Source of the DNA: Octopus vulgaris
Taxonomy: Eukaryota
Assembly: GCA_951406725.2 (NCBI GenBank)
Contig: OX597818.1
Coordinates: 87,668,001-87,732,000, forward strand
Length of the DNA: 64,000 bases
Direction of reading: 5' to 3'
Both the position numbers and the translations under genes were made by a program. The notes beneath the pieces were generated by a model. That model worked only from the letters and a program-made list of their open reading frames with translations, did no database searches and was not told where the DNA came from. This document shows, one piece after another, positions 1,037 through 51,815 of this stretch. Each line of letters begins with the position of its first letter. The first letter of the stretch is position 1.

Positions 1037-2050
1037 TCAACAATAGCGACGTTTTACTCTCAAATCCAGCAACAATTGGTGAAAACGGGACAAAACTAGG
1101 GATAACTGCTTCCAAGATCGATTTTGTTGTTGCTGTTTAGCACCAGAACAGCCTTGACTAAACAGACCTACGATCAAAAGTCCTCCAACTTTGACCCTTC
1201 TGTCTTTCTCTTTTTCTTTTGTTTTTTTTTTCTCAGGCATCGTGAACCACGCTGTTGTGTGACCATGCTTGTGCATAAAATGAATGCTTGCGATGTAAAG
1301 ACCATGTTCATCGCAAAGCTCCAGCAGCACGAGACCATTGTTATTCATTTTCCTTACGCCAAAGCGTCCTAAAGAGTTCCATGTTTGCCAGTCTGTTCCA
1401 ACCCTGGAAATGAAATCCCTCAGCAGAATGACTTTGTCAGAATTGGGTTTTTTTTCTAAGTATGGCCCTCAGCTGGGTATAAAAAAGTAATTTTATCTTC
1501 ATCTCAACTAGTCAAAGTAGGTGCATAGGCTTTTATTAGAGTAGCAAACCGCCAACCTTTCAGGTGCAATCGTAGAGCCATTAGAGGTTCATTTATAGGA
1601 ACAGGAAGGTCCTCCAACATCTTAAGGACATCAGATGGAACTGCAAAGCCAACACCAACGAACAACAAGTGCAGTGCATCTTTCAGGCCTACAATCACTC
1701 TTGTTATCCAACAGAGTGCGCATATTCCAACATAAAATGTTCAAGTTCCATCCAGATTTTGTAAAAAAGAGTCCCTTTGTTTTTCGAGCGCATGGTGTAT
1801 ATCCTTCAGACGCGCTAAACTGACCAGGTATAGGTATACAGGCAATTTTTGGTTCACCTTTCCTAGAACCTCTCCGGCCTCTTGGTGAGCAGTGCCCTCT
1901 CCAAATGGAGCTGCTCAGACACCCATGAAGCAACCGAATCCTATTGCCGTCTTGGGCGTCAAGGAGACGACTTTATATCTAGCATGAACCGCTTACGTGC
2001 AGGTCACTGACTACATGCTTCCAACCCGTCAAGTCTGCATGCGTCTCTAC
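1037..2050 (-). mobile_element. RTE-clade LINE 5' remnant (5' region + decayed apurinic-like endonuclease domain)
   Basis: Minus-strand frames give LNILCWNMRTLLDNKSDCRPERCTALV and NNNGLVLLELCDEHGLYIASIHF..HTTAW, typical RTE APE motifs; frameshifted. Confidence 0.85.
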
Positions 2051-2532
2051 CATCTCATCGCCGCAAGTTTTCCAGTCTCTTATTCGTGACCTCCTTTATG
2101 CAGATGACTATGACTTAGTCACTCATACAGTGGATGACATGCAAGTACTTATGAATCGTATTTCTGCTTCTTGCAAGGCATTTGGACTCAGCATTAGACT
2201 GGACAAGACTGTTGTAAGTCTGCACCAGGAAATCCATATATGAAACCAGCTACCTTGGTTGAAGGAACAATACTAAAAGTTTGTCTACCTGAGAAGCACA
2301 ATCAGCCATTCTTGCTCCCTGGATGATGAAATATCTTTCAGGCTGCGGAGAGCAAGTGATTCCTTCCAGTTTCTTCAGTCTCGTGTCTGATCCCAGCATG
2401 GTATCACAAGGCGAACAAAAAATGTTGTGTACCGTGCATGTGTACTGACATCGTTTCTTTACTCATGTGAGACATGGACCCTTTACAAACGCCATGTAAA
2501 GGTCCTTGAACGTTTTCATCAGAGATGTCTGG
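2051..2532 (+). mobile_element. RTE-clade LINE RT C-terminal remnant
   Basis: IRDLLYADD at ~2083-2110 and YRACVLTSFLYSCETWTLYKRHVKVLERFHQRCL; similar to 44990-45470. Confidence 0.85.
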
Positions 2533-2816
2533 AGCCACCGTTGATACTGGCTTACGCTTATTGTCCCATATACTGCATTAATATTCCTCGCACTTTCCAC
2601 AAAAACAAAATATGCCCAATATGCACCTTTGTCACTTCCGTTATAGCTTTCAAAAAAATGACTGTTAAAATCGAACTGCACTTTTCAAAACTTGCACCAA
2701 GAATAAGCAGAAGGTAAAATTACTACATGCTTTTATAGCAAATTGATGCACGTAGTTTATCCCGTTCCCCTCCGACTTTTAGTTCATGCAATTGTAAAAA
2801 ACGCATTATTTATTAG

Positions 2817-2879
<63 letters not shown>

Positions 2880-2881
<2 letters not shown>

Positions 2882-3132
2882 ACAATTGAGGGTAAAATTA
2901 ATTAATCAATTTCACCAAGTGTTCAGTATGTAAAAGGACCATTTAAGGCGAATTCAAAATATTACATTATATAATTAGGGCTTAGTAAAATAAATTATTC
3001 AAAATATTACATTATATAATTAGGCTTAGTAAAAAATATTACATTATATAATTAGGGCTTAGTAAAATAATTTATTTTACTAAGCCCTAATTATATAATG
3101 TAATATTTTGAATAATTTATTTTACTAAGCCC

Positions 3133-3135
<3 letters not shown>
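2880..3135. mobile_element. Partial copy of the 559-bp HHR/pLTR family with internal tandem and inverted duplication, between (TA)n tracts
   Basis: aacaattgagggtaaaatta...gggcttagtaaaataaatta matches 48288-48410; ~3070-3135 is the reverse complement of the preceding segment. Confidence 0.75.
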
Positions 3136-3174
<39 letters not shown>

Positions 3175-3249
3175 GTCTGTTTATGTATGTATACGCACAC
3201 GCACACGCACACGCACACGTACACACGCACACACGCACACACACGCACG

Positions 3250-3316
<67 letters not shown>

Positions 3317-3617
3317 GCTCTGATGTGTCGTATGATATTATCAAATAAGGATTTACTAATAATTCATATTTCAGTTTTTGTGGGATTTATTAATCTACAA
3401 GTATGGTTTTACGTGAAGTTACCTTTATGATTTTTGGGGGTTACAAAAAGATTTCGTTGGGTAAGCTTTTCTACTCTATCTGCTATTTTAAACCTTGTAG
3501 CTAATTTTTTGCTTCTATATTAATTAAATTAGAAGTGATGTAGTTTGTTTGTTTTATTGTATGTTTTAGTTATGTTGTCAGTTAATAATTTATGTGTGGT
3601 TTTTAACTTCATAAAAT

Positions 3618-3655
<38 letters not shown>

Positions 3656-4217
3656 TTATCGTGTATATATGGGTAAGTATCTTTGTGTTAGTATTTGTCC
3701 TCCACTCATTCTTGACAACCGGTGGTGCTTTGTTTATGTTTTCGGAGCTTGGAAGATTGGCAATGTAGAGCGACAGAATAATCACCAGAACTTTGCAAAA
3801 ATAAGTACAGTGGTGGGGCGATTTGTTTGCCTAAACCTTTGAAGTCGGTGTCTCAGCATGGCCGCTGTCCAATGACTGGAACAAGTGAAAGATATAATTA
3901 GGATAATAATCATTAATCAGAGTTGACTTGGTGCGAAACAACAACAACAACAACTTGTATATCAATACTGATGCTAATTGATCGTATACAAGTTAATTCA
4001 ATAGGCAAAAAGAGTTGAGAGGGAATTTTTGCAGAAAATTAAATTGTATATTTGATAAAGAGAACACAGTTACCATGAAAGAAAACTATAACGACAGAAG
4101 ACAAAATCTCTTTTTAATGAAAAAAAAAAATAAAGACACAACTTTAAACAATAACAAATTTCACGATTCGTTTTAAACTTCTTTTTTTTTTTACTGCCAT
4201 AATTATTAAATTGTGAA

Positions 4218-4280
<63 letters not shown>

Positions 4281-5639
4281 GTATATGAATAAATAAATAG
4301 ATAAAAAGAATGAAAATAAATAATTAAATCGTCAGCATAATGTCTGGTGTCTTTTACTTGAATTAATGCAGTATGAAATTCAGCTGTGTTAATTAAATAG
4401 ATTCTGATAAACAGACGCCTTCATTAGATGAACGACTTACTTGGGTGTGAAAATGTTCCGTTAAATAATATCGAATCAACTGATGTTATGGATTGTTTGA
4501 TGTTTATTGACTTATTCAACTGGATAGGAAGGAGGCAATAGGTTATCAAGCCATGACTATCTTCATATCAACAAACCACTTCGGCTCATGTGCTGTATCT
4601 ACCTCAACTCATCTACATTTCTAACTCTGACGACTCAAACGAAATAGCGGGCGAGACTCTACCTGGTTGCTAGAAATATCAGTCAAATCTTCCTTAGTTA
4701 AATCTGCCTTGCAGTTATTTTTATTTTTTCAGCTAAGGATGAAGGCGTGTGGCCTAGTGGTTAGGGTCTTGCACTCACGATAGTAAGATTGTTGTCTCGA
4801 TCCCTGGACCTGGCAGTGCGTCGTGTGTGTGTGTATGTGTGTGTGTGTGTGTGTGTGGGTAGTATGCATGTATGTATGTGTTTGTGTGCATCCGTGATGA
4901 TAAGAATATTTCTGTACATGTGTCACCAGTGTGATGTTTTGGTTGAGTTGAAATCGATGGAAAAAAAGCCAAATCCCAAGTTTCCCATTTGAAATGTAAA
5001 AAACATTTATTTTTGTCGTAAACAAACTTTATGTTATCGATACTACAAACGACAGAAAAGATATTTTCTCCAGAATATCACCCCATCAATCGTCATGAGA
5101 CAGGAATGCGAACCAATCCTGTCAAACCACATATGTATATGTTCCACTGGAATGATTTGTTGATTCCTGCATCTCGGTGGTTTAGTTGTGTCGTCGTTGC
5201 CGCTGTCATCGCCATCACTATCCTTTAGTTTTGATGCTTCGGCTACACTGCCCATGGGTTAAGATCGTGCACCATTACTGCTAGCTAGTGGCAAGAGAGA
5301 TTTCTATTTATAGCTATTTCTTTAAAAAAAAAAACATTGCCAAAAATTGGAATTGTTAACGAGATCCTGTTTTAAAGGATGTCTGGGTGGTCAGTTCCTC
5401 AATGTTGTCATCAATAATTGAACGAATCACGTTGGTGTTGTTTAGTTGTTTTAGCATCGGTCATAGTGACTCAGGTTTGGTATCTAGATGTTATGGAGGA
5501 GCCAAATATTCCTGCTACATATTTACGTGTGTATATTTGCATGTATGTATACATATTTGTGTGAGCTGATTCTATCAATTTCTACTATTATTACTCAACG
5601 TAGGATAGACTTTTACCTAAAATCAATTTATCGTTGCAA

Positions 5640-6050
5640 TGTGGTGACTGGTGTACCTCAATGACTTTAGGAGCTATTCTAGGGGAGCACACGTTCCTGG
5701 TAGGACCTCCCATGCTGGACAGATCAAAAGATAGAGGCCAAATTAATATGCATTACCGCTTCCCAGAAGTAAAAGCTAGTTTGTCAAAGGCTAACACCAC
5801 TGACTAGAAAACATCCAAGTTACATAATCATCGATGACTATTCAAAACCAAGGCATGGGAAAGGAAGGCCTTCTCTCAGGAAAAAATATGACACATTCTG
5901 GAAAAAATCTGACTGGAGATGGGATACTGAGGCAGAGCTGAAAAAGCAGGGACTTAACCGGTGAGAAGTAAAAAGGACAGTTCAGAGTGGAGAACAGACG
6001 AGAAAACTCATTCCATAGGGAGTGAAGAGCTTAAGAAGAAAGAAGAGTAG
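5640..6050 (+). mobile_element. Decayed LINE-like (possibly RTE-derived) non-autonomous remnant
   Basis: LINE-like 3' coding scrap followed by a (AAG)n-like tail. Confidence 0.3.
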
Positions 6051-6190
6051 ATTTAGCTCGATAGTTCGTGCTGAATAATCGGCCACATCGAATGTTATAT
6101 TTTGGAGACTTGCACATCGTAATAAAAGACGAAGATCACACAACTATTGGGTAGGCCAATATATTCGTTCGGTTTTAGTCGGCATATATA

Positions 6191-6239
<49 letters not shown>

Positions 6240-6241
<2 letters not shown>

Positions 6242-6465
6242 TCGTTTACTTGTTTCAGTGATTTGACTGCGGCCATGCTGGAGTACCGCCTTTAGTCGAA
6301 TCAAATCGACCCCAGGCCTTATTCTTTTTAAGCCTAGTACTAATTCTATCGGCCTCTTTTGCCGAACCGCTAAGTTACGGCGACGTAAACACACCACCAT
6401 CGGTTGTCAAGCGATGTTGGGGGGACAAACACAGACACACAAATATATACACACACACACACACA

Positions 6466-6529
<64 letters not shown>

Positions 6530-6672
6530 CGACAGGCTTCTTTCAGTTTCCGTCTACCAAATCCACTCACAAGGCTTTGTCTGCTCGAGGCTATAGTAGA
6601 AGACACTTGCTCAAGTGCTACACAGTGGGACTGAACCCGAAACCATGTGGTTTGTAAGCAAGCTACTTACCA
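6240..6672 (-). mobile_element. tRNA-derived SINE family 1 (internal microsatellite)
   Basis: Head with A/B-box-like tgtggtaag...ggttcagtccc, internal (TA)/(CA)n, tail gactgaaacaagtaaa; many copies in window. Confidence 0.85.
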
Positions 6673-6839
6673 CACACACACACACTCACACACACACACA
6701 CACATATATGTATATAGTACATTTCTCATCTAAATGCTGAGAAAGATGGAAGGGTACATCAGATGATGTAGTCTTTGTTATATAAAATGACACGATGGTC
6801 ACGATTGGAGGGCTTTTGATCTGTTATGATCTGCAGGTA

Positions 6840-7155
6840 AAGCAACAAGCAACAGCAGCAACAACAATAGCAGTATTAGAAACAGCTACAATAACAATAG
6901 CAAATAGCAAGAACAACAGAAATAGAAGCAGGAAGAAGAACAATCAGATTGGAAATAGCAGTAAAAGCAATAGCAACTACACTGTTTACAACAACAACAA
7001 AAGCAGCAGTAACAACAACAACAACACCAACAATATTAACGACAGCAACAATAACAACAACAACAACAACAACAACGGTAGTATCAGCAGCAACAATAAC
7101 GACAGTAGAAATAACGACATCAGCAACCACAACCAAAACCACCACAACAACAATA

Positions 7156-7216
<61 letters not shown>

Positions 7217-7333
7217 TTGCTACTACTACTACTACTGCTACTATTGCTACTACTACTACTACTGCTATTATTGCTACTACTACTACTACTACTACTACTA
7301 CTGCTACTATTGCTACTACTACTACTATTACTG

Positions 7334-7364
<31 letters not shown>

Positions 7365-7378
7365 GACTGCTACTACTA

Positions 7379-7410
<32 letters not shown>

Positions 7411-7464
7411 TTGCTATTACTACTACTACTACTGCTACTATTGCTACTACTACTACTATTACTG

Positions 7465-7531
<67 letters not shown>

Positions 7532-7605
7532 AGCAGCAGCAGCAGCAAAAACAACATCAACAACACCAGCAGATTCAGAAGCAGCGGCAGTAACCAACAA
7601 CAACA
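6840..7605. repeat. Compound (AAC)/(TAC)/(CAG) trinucleotide microsatellite
   Basis: Directly visible. Confidence 0.95.
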
Positions 7606-7761
7606 AAAGCCCAAATAAAACTAGCCTTTACTCTCTAAACACCAACACGACCTTTGGCCTTTCTGTTCTTTCACACAGTGGCTTCAACCAATTACATTAC
7701 CTTCTGGAATCTTGCAGGGCAATCTTGATCACAATTCGACTAAATCCCCTGCTGGTGTTCC

Positions 7762-7928
<167 letters not shown>

Positions 7929-8344
7929 CACATATACACTGATCAAATTAGGTTAGGGAAATGTAGAATGGCGGAGAGATGTCGACCGGACCGTATTCTG
8001 TGCGCGTTGTGTGTTGGGAGATGAGCGAATGATTGAAATTATATGATATAATCTGAGATCGTTGTCAGATAATGGCGAAGAATTATCGAGGAATTTCATA
8101 GAACGTAAAAAAACGTAAAGCGACAGCGTTCATGCTTTTTCAACTAAAAAGCTTTACAAGGATTTCTATGATGACGTATAAGTTCATCGTTGCAAACAGC
8201 AGTGGTAACGTTGGAACAAAGGTGAATGTTCCGTTAGGTTTCAGTGATGAGTTTAAAAAATATAGTTCACAAAACAGTTCTATCTTCACATTATTTACAT
8301 TATTTACATTCGACGGATATTTTTCCTCATCTTGTTTGTTGTTA

Positions 8345-8388
8345 ACACAACGTTTTGGCTGATATACCCTTCAGCCTTCTTCAGGTGT
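8345..8388 (-). ncRNA. Type I minimal hammerhead ribozyme (G12A-mutated copy)
   Basis: acac CTGAAGA a ggctg-loop-cagcc AAAA cg TT gtgt. Confidence 0.6.
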
Positions 8389-8441
8389 CTTGGGAAAATT
8401 TCGAAACTGGGTTCTCATTCCTAAAATATTTTCGATGTTAA

Positions 8442-8508
<67 letters not shown>

Positions 8509-28461: not shown

Positions 28462-29259
28462 CTTTTCTACTCTAGGTACAAGGCCCGAAATTTTGGGGGA
28501 GCGGGGGCAGTCAATTAGCTCGAACCCGGGAGGCAACTGGTACTTAATCTATCGACCCCGAAAAGATGAAAGGCAAAGTCGACCTCGGCGGAATTTGAAA
28601 TCAGAATGTAAAGACAGATGAAATACCTATTTCTTTACTACCCACAAGGGGCTAAACACAGAGAGGACAAACAAGGACAGACAAACGGATTAAGTCGATT
28701 ATATCGACCACAGTGCGTAACTGGTACTTATCTAATCGACCCCGAAAGGATGAAAGGCAAAGTCGACCTCGGCGGAATTCGAACTCAGAACGTAACGGCA
28801 GACGAAATACCGCTAAGCATTTCAACCGGCGTGCTAACAACGTTTATTTCTTTATTGCCCACAAGGGGCTAAACATAGACTGGAAAAACAAGGACAGACA
28901 AACGGGTTAAGTCGCTTACATCGACCACAATGCGTAACTGGTACTTAATTTATCGACCCCGAAAGGATGAAAGGCAAAGTCGACTGCGGCGGAATTTGAA
29001 CTCAGAACGTAGCAGCAGACGAAATATATATTTCATTACTACCCACTAAGGGCTAAACAGAGAGGACAAACAAGGACGGACAAACGGATTAAGTCGCTTA
29101 CATCGACCCCAGTGCATAACTGGTACTTATTTAATCGACCCCGAAATGATGAAAGGCAAAGTCGATCTCGGCGGAATTTGAATTCAGAACGTAACGGCAG
29201 ACGAAATACCCCTAAGCATTTCGCCCGGCGTGCTAACGCTTCTGCCAGTTCGCCGCCTT
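28462..29259 (-). mobile_element. SINE family 2 multimer (~4 tandem bodies)
   Basis: gaccccgaaa..gatgaaaggcaaagtcga recurs near 28555, 28738, 28955 and 29138. Confidence 0.85.
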
Positions 29260-41959: not shown

Positions 41960-42965
41960 GGTTACTGATGCGCAGACATGCGCTGAGGTTGCTGCATCTC
42001 CAGCGTTTCCAATACGGTGAGGTGTGGACCCCGTTTGTAAGACACGCTTTTACTGAGCTGCAATCCTGGGATAGGCGCAAACCGAGGAGGGGCGCTTGGC
42101 ATCTCGAGTACCGTCAAGCGCTCACAGCCCTCTTCTAGGCAGACAATGCGGTCGGTGGTAGTTCTTCTCTAGCGTTCTATTGAAGGCTAGTGGAGGGAAA
42201 GTGCGACGACATTCTCGGAGAAACTCTGAGCGTCGATGAAGATCAACTAAACGGTCTGTTTTGGAGAACTTTCGGGCCTGGACCTATGAATAACTTCCAG
42301 AAATCCCTTGTTCGGGATAAACTTTATAAGCACAGAAGTACTGACAGCCAGACCTGCCCGGGATGCGCCCAGAACGATGAAACCGTTCTGCACGCTCTAG
42401 TCCATTGTCCGAGTATTACTGACCCGTGGGTTTGTATCGAACGCCTAGTGTCGCGCGTTGGACGGATCCGACTATCAGCTGATTACATTGTGAAGATTGC
42501 CCCGCCACCCTTTTTGGGCCGGGATGGGAGGGCAATTTTTATTTGTCTAGTGGCTGTAGCGAAAGAGGTAGTATGGTGGACCCGTTTGAAAGGACTAAAG
42601 ACAATTTCCTCTTCGGTCAAGCTCTCATCTTTCAATTGAAAAGGACATTGAGGGTGGAGAGGGGAGTGTTGCCTTGTAGTATGTTTGTTGAAAGGTGGGT
42701 GAATGTTGGAAGAATGGCCAATGTGAAAGGACCAATTCTGAGCGTCCACCTGTAAACAAAAGAAGGGCTTTGCCCTGTGGCTTTTGCGGGTTTTTCCACG
42801 AGGTCCTTAAAGCACCTCCCCTGTTGGTAGTTTTAAATTGTTTAATTTTTGTTATTATATTGCCTACACTTTGTAAAACCCATTGTATCGTCCTGTTTTT
42901 GTATTTTGGGTTGTATGTCTTTTAATGTAATTTTATGCGAGCCCTTGTGGCCAAGAAAAGAATTT
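41960..42965 (+). mobile_element. L1/Tx1-clade LINE 3' fragment (ORF2 C-terminal CCHC/zf-RVT region) with (ATT)n tail
   Basis: CPGCAQNDETVLHALVHCP motif in ORF 42190-42639. Confidence 0.75.
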
Positions 42966-43714: not shown

Positions 43715-46217
43715 CGGTTTATGATATAGGCAAGAAAGTTCTGGGATTGATACAAAGAAAGCATCAAGATTGTTTCAAAGAAAATGATGAACATATAGAT
43801 GATTTATTGGCTGATAAAAGACGTACTTTGTCACGCTATTTGTCAGCAAAGCCACAGGAAAGGGAAGTGTTGCATAGGGAACTCAAGGACGTAAAATCAC
43901 GTGTGAGGCAAAGGCTCTCTCAGATGAGGGATACGTGGTGGCGTAAGAAGGCTGATGAGATACAGGAGGCATGAGATTCCAATAACACAAAGCTGTTGTA
44001 TGGTCTCTTGCGAGAAGTTTATGGACCGACGTCTTCTCTGATGACACCACTTCGAAGCAAGGATGGTAAAGAACTTCTTCGTGATTCACAAGGAATTCTG
44101 CGAAGGTGGCAAGAACACTTTGATGAACTTTTGAATCAGCAGTCTGTAGTTAGTGAGGATGTTCTTAATCTCATCCCTGGATTTCCTGTGAAGGCAGCAC
44201 TCGCGGAACCACCAAAGTTGGAAGAAGTTGCAATGGCTGTCTCAAGGTTGAATAATGGGAAGTCTCCGGGTATGGATGGCATACATGCGGAGTTGTTGCA
44301 GTATGGTGGTGAGAAACTTCTGCAGAAACTTCACTCTTTGTTTGGTAAGATAAGGACTAGTGAATCTGTACCTGAGGACTGGAGAGATGCAGTAAAGGTG
44401 GTCTTGTATAAGGGAAAGGGCAACAGGAATGATTGTGGTAATTATAGAGGAGTATCATTGCTGTCTGGTGTAGGAAAGGTTTTATGCAGGATACTTCTGG
44501 ATCGTCTGCTGAAATACATTGCAGATTGTGTTTTTCCAGAAAGTCAATCTGGCTTTCGTGTGGGACGTGGCACTGCTGATATGATCTTTTCAGCTAGACA
44601 GCTTCAGGAAAAGTGTGTGGAACAGGGTCTGGATTTGTATCAGGTTTTTGTCGATCTGAAAAAAGCCTTTGATACCGTCAATAGAAAAGCATTGTGGAAA
44701 GTCCTCCAGAAACTTGGGTGTCCTGAAAAGTTCCTTGCTTTGGTTAGGTATTTTCATGAAGACATGAATGGTAGGGTGAATGATAGAGGGAAAATGTCGG
44801 AGCCCATTTCAATACAAAATGGAGTGAAACAGGGGGATATTCTGGCACCAACCCTATTTTCCATATATTTCGCGATGGTATTCTGTATTGCATTCAGAAA
44901 CTGCAGATACGGTGTTTACATCCATTATCGAACCTCTGGCAGCATATTTAATATCAGGCGCCTTGCTGCAAAAACAAAGGTATTTACCTCTATCATAAGA
45001 GACCTTTTGTATGCAGATGATTGTGAGCTAGTACCACACACAGAGATTGATATGCAACACATTTTGAATGCATTCTCTGATGCTTGCACTGCCTTAGGAT
45101 TGACAGCCTCAGTCTCAAGAAAACTGTTGTCATGCATCAACCTGCCCCTGGTAAGCAGTATAGTGTACCAAATATCAATGTGTATGGTAAACGACATGAT
45201 GTAGTTGATCAGTTTGTCTACCTGGGAAGCACTATTAATAGATATGGCAATTTGGATGATGAAATTACATATAGAATTAGGAAAGCAAGTGTTGCTTTCG
45301 GAAGGCTAGAAAAGCGCCTCTGGAGTCGGCGAGACATATGCAGAAAGACAAAGATAAAGGTGTATAAGGCATGTGTGCTCCCTTCTCTTCTCTATGCCTG
45401 CGAGACGTGGGTCACATATCGATACCACCTTAAACAACTGGAACGTTTCCATCAGATTTGCCTCAGACGGATCTATGGCATTAAGTGGAAGTACCGCATC
45501 AGTGATCTTGAAATATTGGAAGGCTCTCGGTGTGAAAGTATAGGAGCTTTTGTGTTAAAGAAAAAGGCTCAGATGGGGTGGTCATCTGGTCAGAATGAAG
45601 GATTCAAGGATGCCAAAACAACTCTTTTATGGAGAGTTAGCTAAAGGAGAACGACCTCCACATAAACCAAAAAAGAGGTATAAGGACTTGCTGAAGGCTT
45701 CCTTAAGAGACATGGGAATGCATAGCTATTGATCGTAGCAGGTGGAGAAGGGTTGTGCATGAGGGGACAGCCACTTTTGAGAAATCTCGAGTTGCACATG
45801 AGAAAGTATGGAGGGATGTCAGGAAGGGTATCGCTGTTACACTTCCAGAAGGGGGGGCTTCCTTTGATGCTGACATGTAATGTCTGTGCAAGACCCTGCC
45901 TCAGTAAAGCTGGACTCAAGAGTCATCTTCGTAGTCATAAAATGAGACAGATGAGTGACAATCTGGCCACTGGTGGTGGTGTAACTCACCATACTAATCA
46001 TATCTGTCGGGCATGTGGAAGAGAGTGTAATTCGGCAGGAGGACTTAAACGACATGCAAAGGTACATAAAGCCCAGTTACAACTACAGCCGGCTTTTATC
46101 AGTAAAGGTTTTAGTTGCCAATTCTGTACAAGACATTGTAGATCTTTAGCTGGCTAAAAAGTCACATTCGATCACAGCACCAGTAACAGTTAAGCTTCGT
46201 GCAATGGCTATACTCGA
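43715..46217 (+). mobile_element. 5'-truncated RTE-clade LINE (RT + three C2H2 fingers), disrupted, within (TATG)n
   Basis: GKSPGMDGI, CGNYRGVSLL, ESQSGFR, FVDLKKAFDTV, GVKQGDILAP, LLYADD, LLYACETW; stop at 43972 and frameshifts near 45105 and 45565. Confidence 0.95.
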
Positions 46218-47506: not shown

Positions 47507-48010
47507 ATAATTGACAACGAAGACGAGAGTGGAGATTTATTCACATTCAAAACATTTTATGAAAAAAAAAAATCCTTATATGCCTATAATGATACACATC
47601 ACAGAAGAACAGAATAGACTAAGCGGAGCAGAAGCACACAAGAGGACGGAAGGTGTCGCTGAAGAGATCACAAATGTGAGACGAAAGATTTCCGAACAAT
47701 GGACATCAGTTAAAATATGAACAGTAATAAACGAGTGAAGAACGAATATATGGTGCGTGTGTTTATTTGGCAAAAAATAAATCATCCTGAAATATAACAA
47801 TATATATATATATATATTACATTATATATAAGGGCTTAGTAAAATAAATTACTTTGCCACATACTGAACTCATTAGAAATAGCAGCTAAAGAAATTTCTT
47901 TAGCCATTTCCAATACTTAAAGAAGATCTCTCTCAGATAGTGTTTGCTCAAACCAACTCACGAAGGTATGGGGGTAAAAACATTAAAAAATCACAAATGC
48001 AAAGGTTATT

Positions 48011-48062
48011 TGAGAACGTACGTTTCTAGATTAGTCAAATCGACATTTCTTTCGTCAGCTCA
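48011..48062 (-). ncRNA. Type I hammerhead ribozyme
   Basis: tgag CTGACGA a aga aat gtc-gattt-gac taa tct a GAAA cgtacg TT ctca. Confidence 0.85.
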
Positions 48063-48569
48063 GAACTCCTTGATTCGGATTTGGGAACATTGAAAGTGGG
48101 AGCATACCCTTTTGGCTTCTTATCACCTCCGGAGATCCGCTCGAACTAACAGTGCTAACAAATTCAAAATATGCAAGCGAAGAATTTCTGCTCTCCCCTT
48201 TCCACCAGCGTGGGTTAAAATTGGCAAACACTATGTTTTATCGGTGAAAACCGAAGCATTAAACAGAGGGAAATGAATTATAATTTCAACAATTGAGGGT
48301 AAAATTAATTAATTATTAATCAATTTCACCAAGTATTCAGTATGTAAAGGGACCATTTAAGGCGAATTCAAAATATTACATTATATATAAGGGCTTAGTA
48401 AAATAAATTACTTTGCCACATACTGAACTCAATAGAAATAGCAGCTAAAGAAATTTCTTTAGCCATTTCTAATACTTAAAGAAGATCTCTCTCAGATAGT
48501 GTTTGCTCAGACCAACTCACGAAGGTATGGGGGTAAAAACATTAAAAAATCACAAATGCAAAGGTTATT

Positions 48570-48621
48570 TGAGAACGTACGTTTCTAGATTAGTCAAATC
48601 GACATTTCTTTCGTCAGCTCA
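48570..48621 (-). ncRNA. Type I hammerhead ribozyme (tandem copy)
   Basis: Identical to 48011-48062, 559 bp apart. Confidence 0.85.
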
Positions 48622-49084
48622 GAACTCCTTGATTCGGATTTGGGAACATTGAAAGTGGGAGCATACCCTTTTGGCTTCTTATCACCTCCGGAGATCCGCT
48701 CGAACTAACAGTGCTAACAAATTCAAAATATGCAAAGTAATTTATTTTACTAAGCCCTTATATATAATGTAATATTTTGAATTCGCCTTAAATGGTCCCT
48801 TTACATACTGAATACTTGGTGAAATTGATTAATAATTAATTAATTTTACCCTCAATTGTTGAAATTATAATTCATTTCCCTCTGTTTAATGCTTCGGTTT
48901 TCACCGATAAAACATAGTGTTTGCCAATTTTAACCTACGCTGGTGGAAAGGGAGAGCAGAAATTCTTCGCTTGCATATTTTGAATTTGTTAGCACTGTTA
49001 GTTCGAGCGGATCTCCGGAGGTGATAAGAAGCCAAAAGGGTATGCTCCCACTTTCAATGTTCCCAAACCCGAATCAAGGAGTTC

Positions 49085-49136
49085 TGAGCTGACGAAAGAA
49101 ATGTCGATTTGACTAATCTAGAAACGTACGTTCTCA
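49085..49136 (+). ncRNA. Type I hammerhead ribozyme (inverted copy)
   Basis: Same motif on + strand. Confidence 0.85.
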
Positions 49137-49422
49137 AATAACCTTTGCATTTGTGATTTTTTAATGTTTTTACCCCCATACCTTCGTGAGTTGGTTTGAG
49201 CAAACACTATCTGAGAGAGATCTTCTTTAAGTATTAGAAATGGCTAAAGAAATTTCTTTAGCTGCTATTTCTAATGAGTTCAGTATGTGGCAAAGTAATT
49301 TATTTTACTAAGCCCTTATATATAATGTAATATTTTGAATTCGCCTTAAATGGTCCCTTTACATACTGAATACTTGGTGAAATTGATTAATAATTAATTA
49401 ATTTTACCCTCAATTGTTGAAA

Positions 49423-49483
<61 letters not shown>

Positions 49484-49532
49484 AATATTAAATTTCTAAA
49501 TATCTCATAGAGATATATACGGTGGTGGAGCG

Positions 49533-49667
49533 ATAGAGTGGTTGTATACTGTCAACTTAACGTGACAGTCCTGTAAGGGAATTACACCACCTCCTAGGGC
49601 TAAACAGCGGTGATGTAATTCCCTTACAGGACTGTCACGTTAAGTTGACAGTATACAACCACTCTAT
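49533..49667. repeat. ~54-bp inverted repeat (fold-back) next to (TA)n
   Basis: atagagtggttgtatactgtcaac..gggaattaca / tgtaattccc..caaccactctat. Confidence 0.85.
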
Positions 49668-50708: not shown

Positions 50709-51010
50709 AGAAACTGGATAGTTGGTAGTTATGTGTTCTGATCTCAGACTCAGTTATAGTAATCTTAAGTATCAATAAAGGAATGCTGGTTGTTAAGTGT
50801 TTGTACAGCAAACTGGACCATACGGTCACATGGTCACACCATTGATCCTGTCTCCTCTCATCACCCAACGAACTTTTACGGATTCTCTACCTGGACTTTC
50901 TACTACCGTACACTTCAGCTCACCTCTCCTACCCATGGATTACACTGGGCTCTTCTGTATATATATATATATATATACTTTATTTTAAGCAGCAGAAAAT
51001 TCAACAAAAT

Positions 51011-51048
51011 CTGTTACTCTGAGTTTCTCGTTGCCGTTCATCAGACAG
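51011..51048 (-). ncRNA. Type I minimal hammerhead ribozyme
   Basis: Reverse complement of 51620-51657. Confidence 0.8.
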
Positions 51049-51619
51049 TTTTGCTAGAATGGAACTGATATATCAATTCAATCTATACTCTTACAAACGC
51101 TACACCTTTAAAAAGTAATGGACTTGTTTGATTGGCCCTTTAGAAAAAACGGTCAATCTTCGAGCGATAAACAAAAAGGTCAAAAATATATGTATATATA
51201 TATAAAAAACTTATAAAAATTATAAAATCCGAGGAAAAAACCTATTGACGTTAATGAAGATAGATTTATATTCATACGTCTGTATATGTATGTATGGCGT
51301 TTACGCGCATCCTTTTGTGTATGTTGATATATATATGTAGATTTTAATATAAATATGTATTGCAGTATTTATAACAGGTTTAATTTCTATGCATTAATTT
51401 GCACTGTCTTCATTAACGTCAATAGGTTTTTTCCTCGGATTTTATAATTTTTATAAGTTTTTTATATATATATACATATATTTTTGACCTTTTTGTTTAT
51501 CGCTCGAAGATTGACCGTTTTTTCTAAAGGGCCAATCAAACAAGTCCATTTCTTTTTAAAGGTGTAGCGTTTGTAAGAGTATAGATTGAATTGATATATC
51601 AGTTCCATTCTAGCAAAAA

Positions 51620-51657
51620 CTGTCTGATGAACGGCAACGAGAAACTCAGAGTAACAG
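51620..51657 (+). ncRNA. Type I minimal hammerhead ribozyme
   Basis: ctgt CTGATGA a cg-gcaa-cg a GAAA ctc-a-gag TA acag. Confidence 0.8.
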
Positions 51658-51815
51658 ATTTTGTTGAATTTTCTGCTGCTTAAAATAAAGCATATTACTC
51701 TACCACTGGTATTTGAGTACTCTTTTTTCCACCTTGTTTCACATTTATGTGTTTACTCCGGTATATATATATATATATATAATTAAATGATAATGGATTA
51801 TATATATATATATAG

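Follow-up and report, generated by a model that had tools for sequence, protein, structure and literature searches.

A two-armed insertion at positions 47814 to 49422 of the Octopus vulgaris DNA analysed here (the window, a stretch of 64,000 nucleotides from contig OX597818.1) is a young insertion of an abundant, protein-free 559-nt repeat with an RNA motif that is predicted to be self-cutting. The insertion probably represents an ordinary addition to a known class, the non-autonomous hammerhead elements of Penelope-like element (PLE) type. We propose that a PLE-type reverse transcriptase-endonuclease acting in trans wrote this non-coding hammerhead repeat from one RNA of greater than unit length, probably a circle, with both DNA strands primed, an account to which, taken as a whole, we would give an even chance. 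Its parts differ in strength: a PLE-dependent, non-autonomous element is very likely, priming from both strands is probable, and a circular rather than a linear template is slightly favored.

The element consists of a 922-nt minus-strand arm (47814 to 48735) and a plus-strand arm of about 691 nt (48732 to 49422), which are placed head-to-head and built from the same 559-nt repeat unit. Unit position 1 was set at the base just past the predicted ribozyme cut (48573, minus strand). With this numbering, the left arm covers 1.65 units and reads, in the sense of the hammerhead ribozyme (HHR), unit 398-559, 1-559, and 1-201, and the right arm covers 1.24 units and reads unit 158-559 and 1-290. The left arm contains a direct repeat at 559-nt spacing (47814-48176 versus 48373-48735, 363 nt, 99.2% identity), and the two arms form an inverted repeat (47814-48416 versus 48732-49333, 603 nt, 99.3% identity). 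At the right outer end only, the plus-strand arm carries a one-sided 3' extension, or tail, of 89 nt (49334 to 49422, unit 202-290). Both outer ends had been predicted to run into (TA)n, and they do: an (AT)9 target tract lies on the left (47800 to 47817), its final four letters fitting the unit as well, and an (AT)29 tract adjoins the right outer end (49423 to 49479). The diverged partial relative noted earlier at 2880 was also recovered (2880 to 3136, about 90% identity); this older copy is likewise two-armed and located in (TA)n, and is without an HHR.

The arms meet at the letters GCAA (48732 to 48735), which fit unit 398-401 on the left and unit 158-161 on the right and so belong to both arms, as expected from the originally proposed joining of the inversion through microhomology. 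At least four shared letters are expected at about 0.6% of random head-to-head joints of this unit. A 12-nt word present twice per unit (at about 198-209 and 402-413) gives rise to a 12-bp inverted repeat that flanks the junction (48720-48731 and 48772-48783) and could have helped the two cDNA ends to meet.

That the inversion is an artefact of assembly or of a fold-back read is a very remote prospect. The arms are offset instead of mirror-symmetric, the flanks on the two sides are unrelated to each other, the passes through the unit carry private differences, and three other two-armed, one-tailed insertions are found in the window (at 2880, 49520, and 50973). The junction 48732-48735 is not among the joints listed in the four DNA-type runs that were compared, in which contigs are short, and among the listed contigs none bridges the left flank into the element, the repeat at 47789-47830 having been skipped in that comparison; these absences would favor an artefact, but the short-contig runs appear to come from other individuals or species.

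Each unit carries one HHR on one strand. The type I motif on the plus strand (49085 to 49136) has its predicted cut after 49132, at the triplet GUU, and motifs of identical sequence are located on the minus strand at 48570 to 48621 (predicted cut after 48574) and at 48011 to 48062 (predicted cut after 48015), with helix III of the latter predicted to pair with the copy at 48570-48621. The original prediction of two minus-strand HHRs 559 bp apart and a plus-strand HHR past the inversion therefore holds in the three cores at -48617, -48058, and +49089. As there is a single HHR per unit, the presence of ribozymes on both strands merely reflects the inversion, and the monomer differs in this from ambisense viroid-like RNAs, which have an HHR on each polarity. 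A descriptor scan for type I HHRs returned eight matches in the window, three of them inside the element, compared to a mean of 0.01 in shuffled windows (100 shuffles), and none of 2000 shuffles of the 559-nt unit matched. An Rfam search for HHR families returned none at the gathering score or at E<=10. Further type I descriptor matches were found at +10431, +20859, and +39727, and the regions downstream of 10431 and 20859 have 107 nt in common at 78%.

The predicted ribozyme is composed of a helix I of 4 bp with a long distal stem, a CUGACGA core, helix II, and a palindromic helix III. Its cleavage triplet, GUU, is weaker than GUC, and the base of helix II is an A·A mismatch. A G10.1-C11.1 pair is conserved at that position (PMC4209133), and a U·U at the base of helix II is tolerated in the axolotl HHR_Amex2, with 22% cleavage as a monomer and more as a dimer (PMC7229834). 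The core is intact, and helices I and II are predicted to form locally (p 0.8-0.9 by folding in a 106-nt context). Helix III is a perfect 8-nt palindrome for which a hairpin is unfavorable (+2.4 kcal/mol) and a duplex stable (-9.8 kcal/mol). When the tandem HHRs of the left arm were folded in their natural sequence, helix III was predicted to pair between the copies (p 0.70-0.96) and the outer helix I to form at p 0.4-0.8; for the inner helix I the prediction was only p 0.01, and the scissile U was mostly in a paired state. With only one of the two active sites predicted to fold, the HHR dimer is plausible, if not a clean one. As a circle, the 559-nt unit has a predicted folding energy of -136.8 kcal/mol (z -3.9 versus 60 shuffles), in a fold that is predicted to block helix I (p 0.03).

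The helix II mismatch varies within the family. At position 48027, a paired A-U form accounts for 49% of the summed depth in DNA-type run X1 (28 contigs) and for 88%, 100%, and 98% of the depth in runs X12, X16, and X19 (6, 4, and 1 contigs), three runs that are taken as RNA by guess only and whose contigs reveal no ends, strand, or circles. Among the runs listed as containing the family, seven are RNA by such a guess, and none is recorded as RNA. This is a weak hint that expressed family members may favor the A-U-paired form, the comparison being between different individuals and partly between diverged subfamilies. With A·A in half of the genomic family and A-U dominant in the RNA-guess runs, either the A·A ribozyme is a working variant or amplification requires little cleavage. 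The HHRs of an unrelated two-armed element at 50973-51762 share this A·A mismatch; as it is seen in two families that are not related, it may be tolerated.

The unit is low in GC (35%), and its longest frame, of 60 amino acids and ending at the HHR core, had no Pfam match. Three phmmer matches of this frame were rejected as tandem-repeat proteins that scored through summed weak single stretches. Two pattern scans of metagenome contigs and one of viral contigs gave no matches. Among the 114 of 141 window frames scanned, RT-type matches occur only at 1983-2240, 42184-42636, and 43975-45201 and look LINE-like. The broken LINE copies at 43975-46157 and 1983-2717 (RVT_1, E 4.8e-26 and 1.4e-4) are presumably RTE-like and not PLE; C2H2 zinc-finger matches at 45726-46154 fall within the LINE region 43975-46157.

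These results bear on whether the arms are the pseudo-LTRs (pLTRs) of an autonomous PLE, in which case the element would be an ordinary 5'-truncated insertion that ended short of the ORF. Fixed ends, a tail, an inversion, and an HHR are all pLTR features, and retrozyme units of Xenopus are homologous to pLTRs (bioRxiv 10.64898/2026.07.22.740005). However, both arms run head-to-tail from unit 290 to 291, through the position where the ORF would be expected, and no ORF lies between. The arrangement typical of an autonomous PLE, an ORF with a telomerase-like RT and a GIY-YIG endonuclease between pLTRs, was found neither in the element nor in the 114 of 141 window frames scanned, among which there was no Pfam match to a PLE RT or GIY-YIG; the remaining 27 frames were judged to lie over microsatellites or short repeats of a common kind, or to be antisense to the LINE. 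In addition, none of the DNA contigs run into unlike sequence, a weak point given contigs of 60-180 nt. We consider the pLTR explanation improbable. The original prediction had named fixed ends together with an attached PLE ORF as the mark of such an ordinary pLTR; the ends are indeed fixed, as described below, and no ORF was seen attached.

The five segments of the element differ from one another at six places in 1,618 nt, by five substitutions and one deletion, each confined to a single pass (unit 64, 104, 142, 362, 376, and 495). These private differences may have arisen by later mutation or through errors, either of the RT or in sequencing. By comparison, at least seven letters that are atypical of the family are common to all passes that cover them (unit 90, 110, 124, 305, 351, 418, and 484). 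The family majority was defined as the majority depth in run X1 and is a loose reference, as the runs may be from other species or populations than the window; all four DNA-type runs have 100% G at unit 484, so they may be other species. Departures from the family that are shared by all passes, combined with differences that are only private, indicate a single template. With both arms exceeding one unit, the earlier claim of a greater-than-unit-length template is supported.

The family is abundant, with 1,591 to 8,462 matching contigs (a count of contigs, not of copies) in each of the four DNA-type runs, which bear three organism labels, and it is present also in the three RNA-guess runs. Family contigs are mostly 90-99% alike to the main copy. 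A 3'-weighted summed depth was considered as a 5'-truncation gradient and dropped, as depth is equally high at unit 343-398 and tracks likeness to the copy compared.

Copies of the family had been expected to have circularly permuted start points. Instead, their outer ends recur at two fixed places, unit 287-295 and unit 187-201. The long outer end is at unit 290 in the main copy and at 287-288 in the relative at 2880. Among the 24 loose ends listed of 310, three run into (TA)n, at unit 288 (X12 and X19) or 295 (X16), and these come from three studies; in another contig comparison, no (TA)n end is among the 24 listed of 308. The long end therefore recurs five times within 9 nt. The short outer end is at unit 198-201 in the main copy and at 187-192 in the relative, twice within 15 nt in two copies in all. 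The 89 nt between the two end positions are found on one side only, and (TA)n is present at both ends of both window copies.

The relative at 2880-3136 has both arms stopping at unit 160, at a palindrome, and contains short internal duplications of unit 160-208. Its two arms derive from one and the same stretch, down to a shared 208|164 duplication joint, which means that two arms need not be consecutive on the template. Three of the four family arms in the window stop at unit 158-160 (48732; 3064-3078), which suggests, in this small sample, a recurrent stop or re-priming zone.

The window is microsatellite-rich (about 35% GC), with a (TA)n hot spot at this locus. Within 2.4 kb of the main element, there are two more insertions with two arms and one tail, both unrelated to it in sequence. 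The first, a small head-to-head element beside the right end (49520-49667), has arms of 59 nt separated by a 17-nt spacer, and its left arm carries an additional tail of 13 nt; it ends in TA on both sides and gave no HHR descriptor match. The second (50973-51762) has arms at 50973-51263 and 51404-51695 that are 99% identical, minimal HHRs at -51044 and +51624 with a GUA site, and a one-sided tail of 66 nt, and is bounded by (TA)n on either side. The left flank of the main element (47644-47799) is the end of another high-depth repeat that enters the same (TA)n. This repeat has a decayed HHR-like core at +47659, and with the letters of its family, helix II would have 6 bp and A9 would be followed by an additional base, as it is in the minimal HHRs of PLEs. 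Elsewhere in the window, a short interspersed repeat at 28628-29208 is present in tandem copies with periods of 217 and 182.

The course of events that we propose would begin with the transcription of a tandem source copy, from which paired HHRs would cut out 559-nt monomers for ligation into circles. Ligation of monomers into circles has been shown for other animal retrozymes, and a retrozyme cycle has been published (PMC7229834). The enzyme would then nick both strands of a (TA)n tract, and the two 3' ends would serve as primers for reverse transcription, each at a fixed RNA site of its own, at unit ~288-290 and ~190-201, respectively. Each cDNA would be extended beyond one full unit (691 and 922 nt), and the complementary 3' ends of the two cDNAs (GCAA and TTGC) would finally anneal and complete each other's second strand. 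The orientation of the element fits, as the cDNAs of the arms would start at the outer (TA)n 3' ends and be extended inward to end in GCAA and TTGC. With the purified PLE protein of Anolis, both strands of AT-rich DNA are cut and extended, and initiation takes place at fixed internal RNA sites, which define the tail (PMC11167929). PLEs have been proposed as the enzyme, and circRNA as the template, for the return of retrozymes to genomes (PMC7229834; PMC4209133).

The inversion might also have been produced by a single priming that was followed by a template switch or by fold-back (self-priming) at GCAA, as has been proposed for PLE inversions (PMC3846280). The 4-nt microhomology would agree with this, the 603-nt inverted register is the register of a fold-back, and the junction of the relative is a palindrome. 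A fold-back would, however, have had 603 nt available where 692 were needed, or 452 where 922 were needed, so that neither arm can be completed from the cDNA of the other. Moreover, a G at unit 104 that is private to the left arm is absent from the right arm, and both outer ends are at recurring end points of the family. We therefore judge self-priming very unlikely. Because fold-back of one cDNA makes neither arm, two primings on RNA are likely. The original prediction had invoked a template switch or twin priming at (TA)n; priming from both sides at (TA)n is supported.

Because each arm continues across the predicted cut site, either a ligated circle or an uncut multimer must have served as template. 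The same two-strand PLE priming could have used a linear, uncleaved transcript that spanned 2.8 units or more of a homogeneous array in the genome, with the HHR as a passenger. The right arm stops 44 nt past the start site of the left arm, and the arms tile a 2.8-mer, fitting end to end on one 1,575-nt RNA with an overlap of only 44 nt (unit 158-201), which also fits twin priming on such a linear template. The HHR of the main copy is imperfect, with the A·A form at about half of the DNA depth in X1. HHR mutations are without effect on PLE insertion in vitro, where uncleaved RNA is the main substrate (PMC11167929), and eight of nine Xenopus dimers showed no cleavage (bioRxiv 10.64898/2026.07.22.740005). 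On the other hand, a linear multimer presupposes a source array without differences between its units, in a family with contigs mostly 90-99% alike to the main copy, and the relative at 2880 has both arms, 208|164 joint included, drawn from one stretch. On balance, we hold a linear template to be the less likely of the two by a small margin. In favor of a circle are the identical passes in a diverse family, the stable circular fold, the retrozyme cycle known from the literature, and the copying of the same interval by both arms of the relative.

Like the metazoan non-LTR retrozymes (PMC7229834; bioRxiv 10.64898/2026.07.22.740005), the element is made of non-coding tandem units of low GC with one predicted type I HHR each and a palindromic helix III that favors dimers. 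The left arm contains two HHR motifs in consecutive units, the family is dispersed and multicopy, and the 559-nt unit falls inside the 51-972 bp range given in the preprint (bioRxiv 10.64898/2026.07.22.740005). It differs from the metazoan retrozymes in unit length, as the RNAs tested were 170-400 nt; in its two-armed inverted layout, the word "inverted" occurring nowhere in PMC7229834; and in the combination of A·A with GUU, in an element known here from sequence, with a predicted HHR. PLE insertions are described as partial tandems with an adjacent inverted truncated copy, a one-sided tail, and a (TA)n bias (PMC8557442; PMC3846280). The main copy likewise has a partial tandem, a head-to-head inverted truncated copy, and a (TA)n target, as do EN+ PLE insertions with HHRs in their pLTRs, from which it differs in its tail (about 89 nt compared to a published 30-40 bp), in having no ORF, and in its HHR, where the G10.1-C11.1 typical of min-HHRs is missing and helix I has a long distal part (PMC4209133). 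Dual HHRs 100-700 bp apart on opposite strands have been described in Schistosoma, and PLE inversions are known to leave ribozymes on both strands as a by-product (PMC4209133).

Non-autonomous elements among the Chlamys PLEs, for example MRC1, are also protein-free, with pLTRs and multicopy head-to-tail insertions, but they are green algal and belong to a clade without canonical HHRs (PMC8557442). Poseidon PAc of Anolis is alike in that both strands are cut and extended at AT-rich DNA from fixed internal starts, and differs in being autonomous, in its linear template, in having sites much closer together, and in that HHR cleavage is dispensable (PMC11167929). The two-strand priming proposed here also resembles LINE-1 twin priming, in which two target primers produce an inversion with microhomology at the joint and priming is by poly(A). 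The present element differs from that process in that its priming does not involve poly(A), each arm is longer than one unit, and the arms of the relative copy the same interval.

A read-through transcript of the element would fold back into a hairpin of 603 bp around a 315-nt loop, and a dsRNA that serves as an ADAR or siRNA substrate is possible at this locus in the generic way of any such inverted repeat. Small RNAs from PLEs are known in rotifers (PMC3846280). At the seven sites where the main copy departs from the family, the family-to-copy changes are mixed, with T>C at four, A>G at one, and G>A at two, and give no clear sign of A-to-I editing, the runs being other individuals.

A literature search found no paper on a cephalopod retrozyme or on an octopus Penelope/hammerhead family and, as judged by titles and term counts, none on retrozyme inversions with twin priming. 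The 559-nt cephalopod-type family is an addition to the known elements, and the supplements of the preprint (bioRxiv 10.64898/2026.07.22.740005) may include units of similar length. As the structural ingredients have each been published, the main copy adds little beyond the split between A·A and A-U forms and the long tail. Two arms of more than one unit with fixed starts nevertheless make a concrete test substrate available to the PLE assay in vitro (PMC11167929). We tentatively suggest a more specific form of the circular reading, in which a dimer of the PLE enzyme reverse-transcribes a single 559-nt RNA circle, starting at two fixed sites that are separated by about 90 nt and used one for each nicked strand, and the cDNA ends anneal over 4 nt to close the insertion. 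If this is true, every such insertion would preserve, as a fossil, the rolling-circle step that has long been proposed for retrozyme mobilization.
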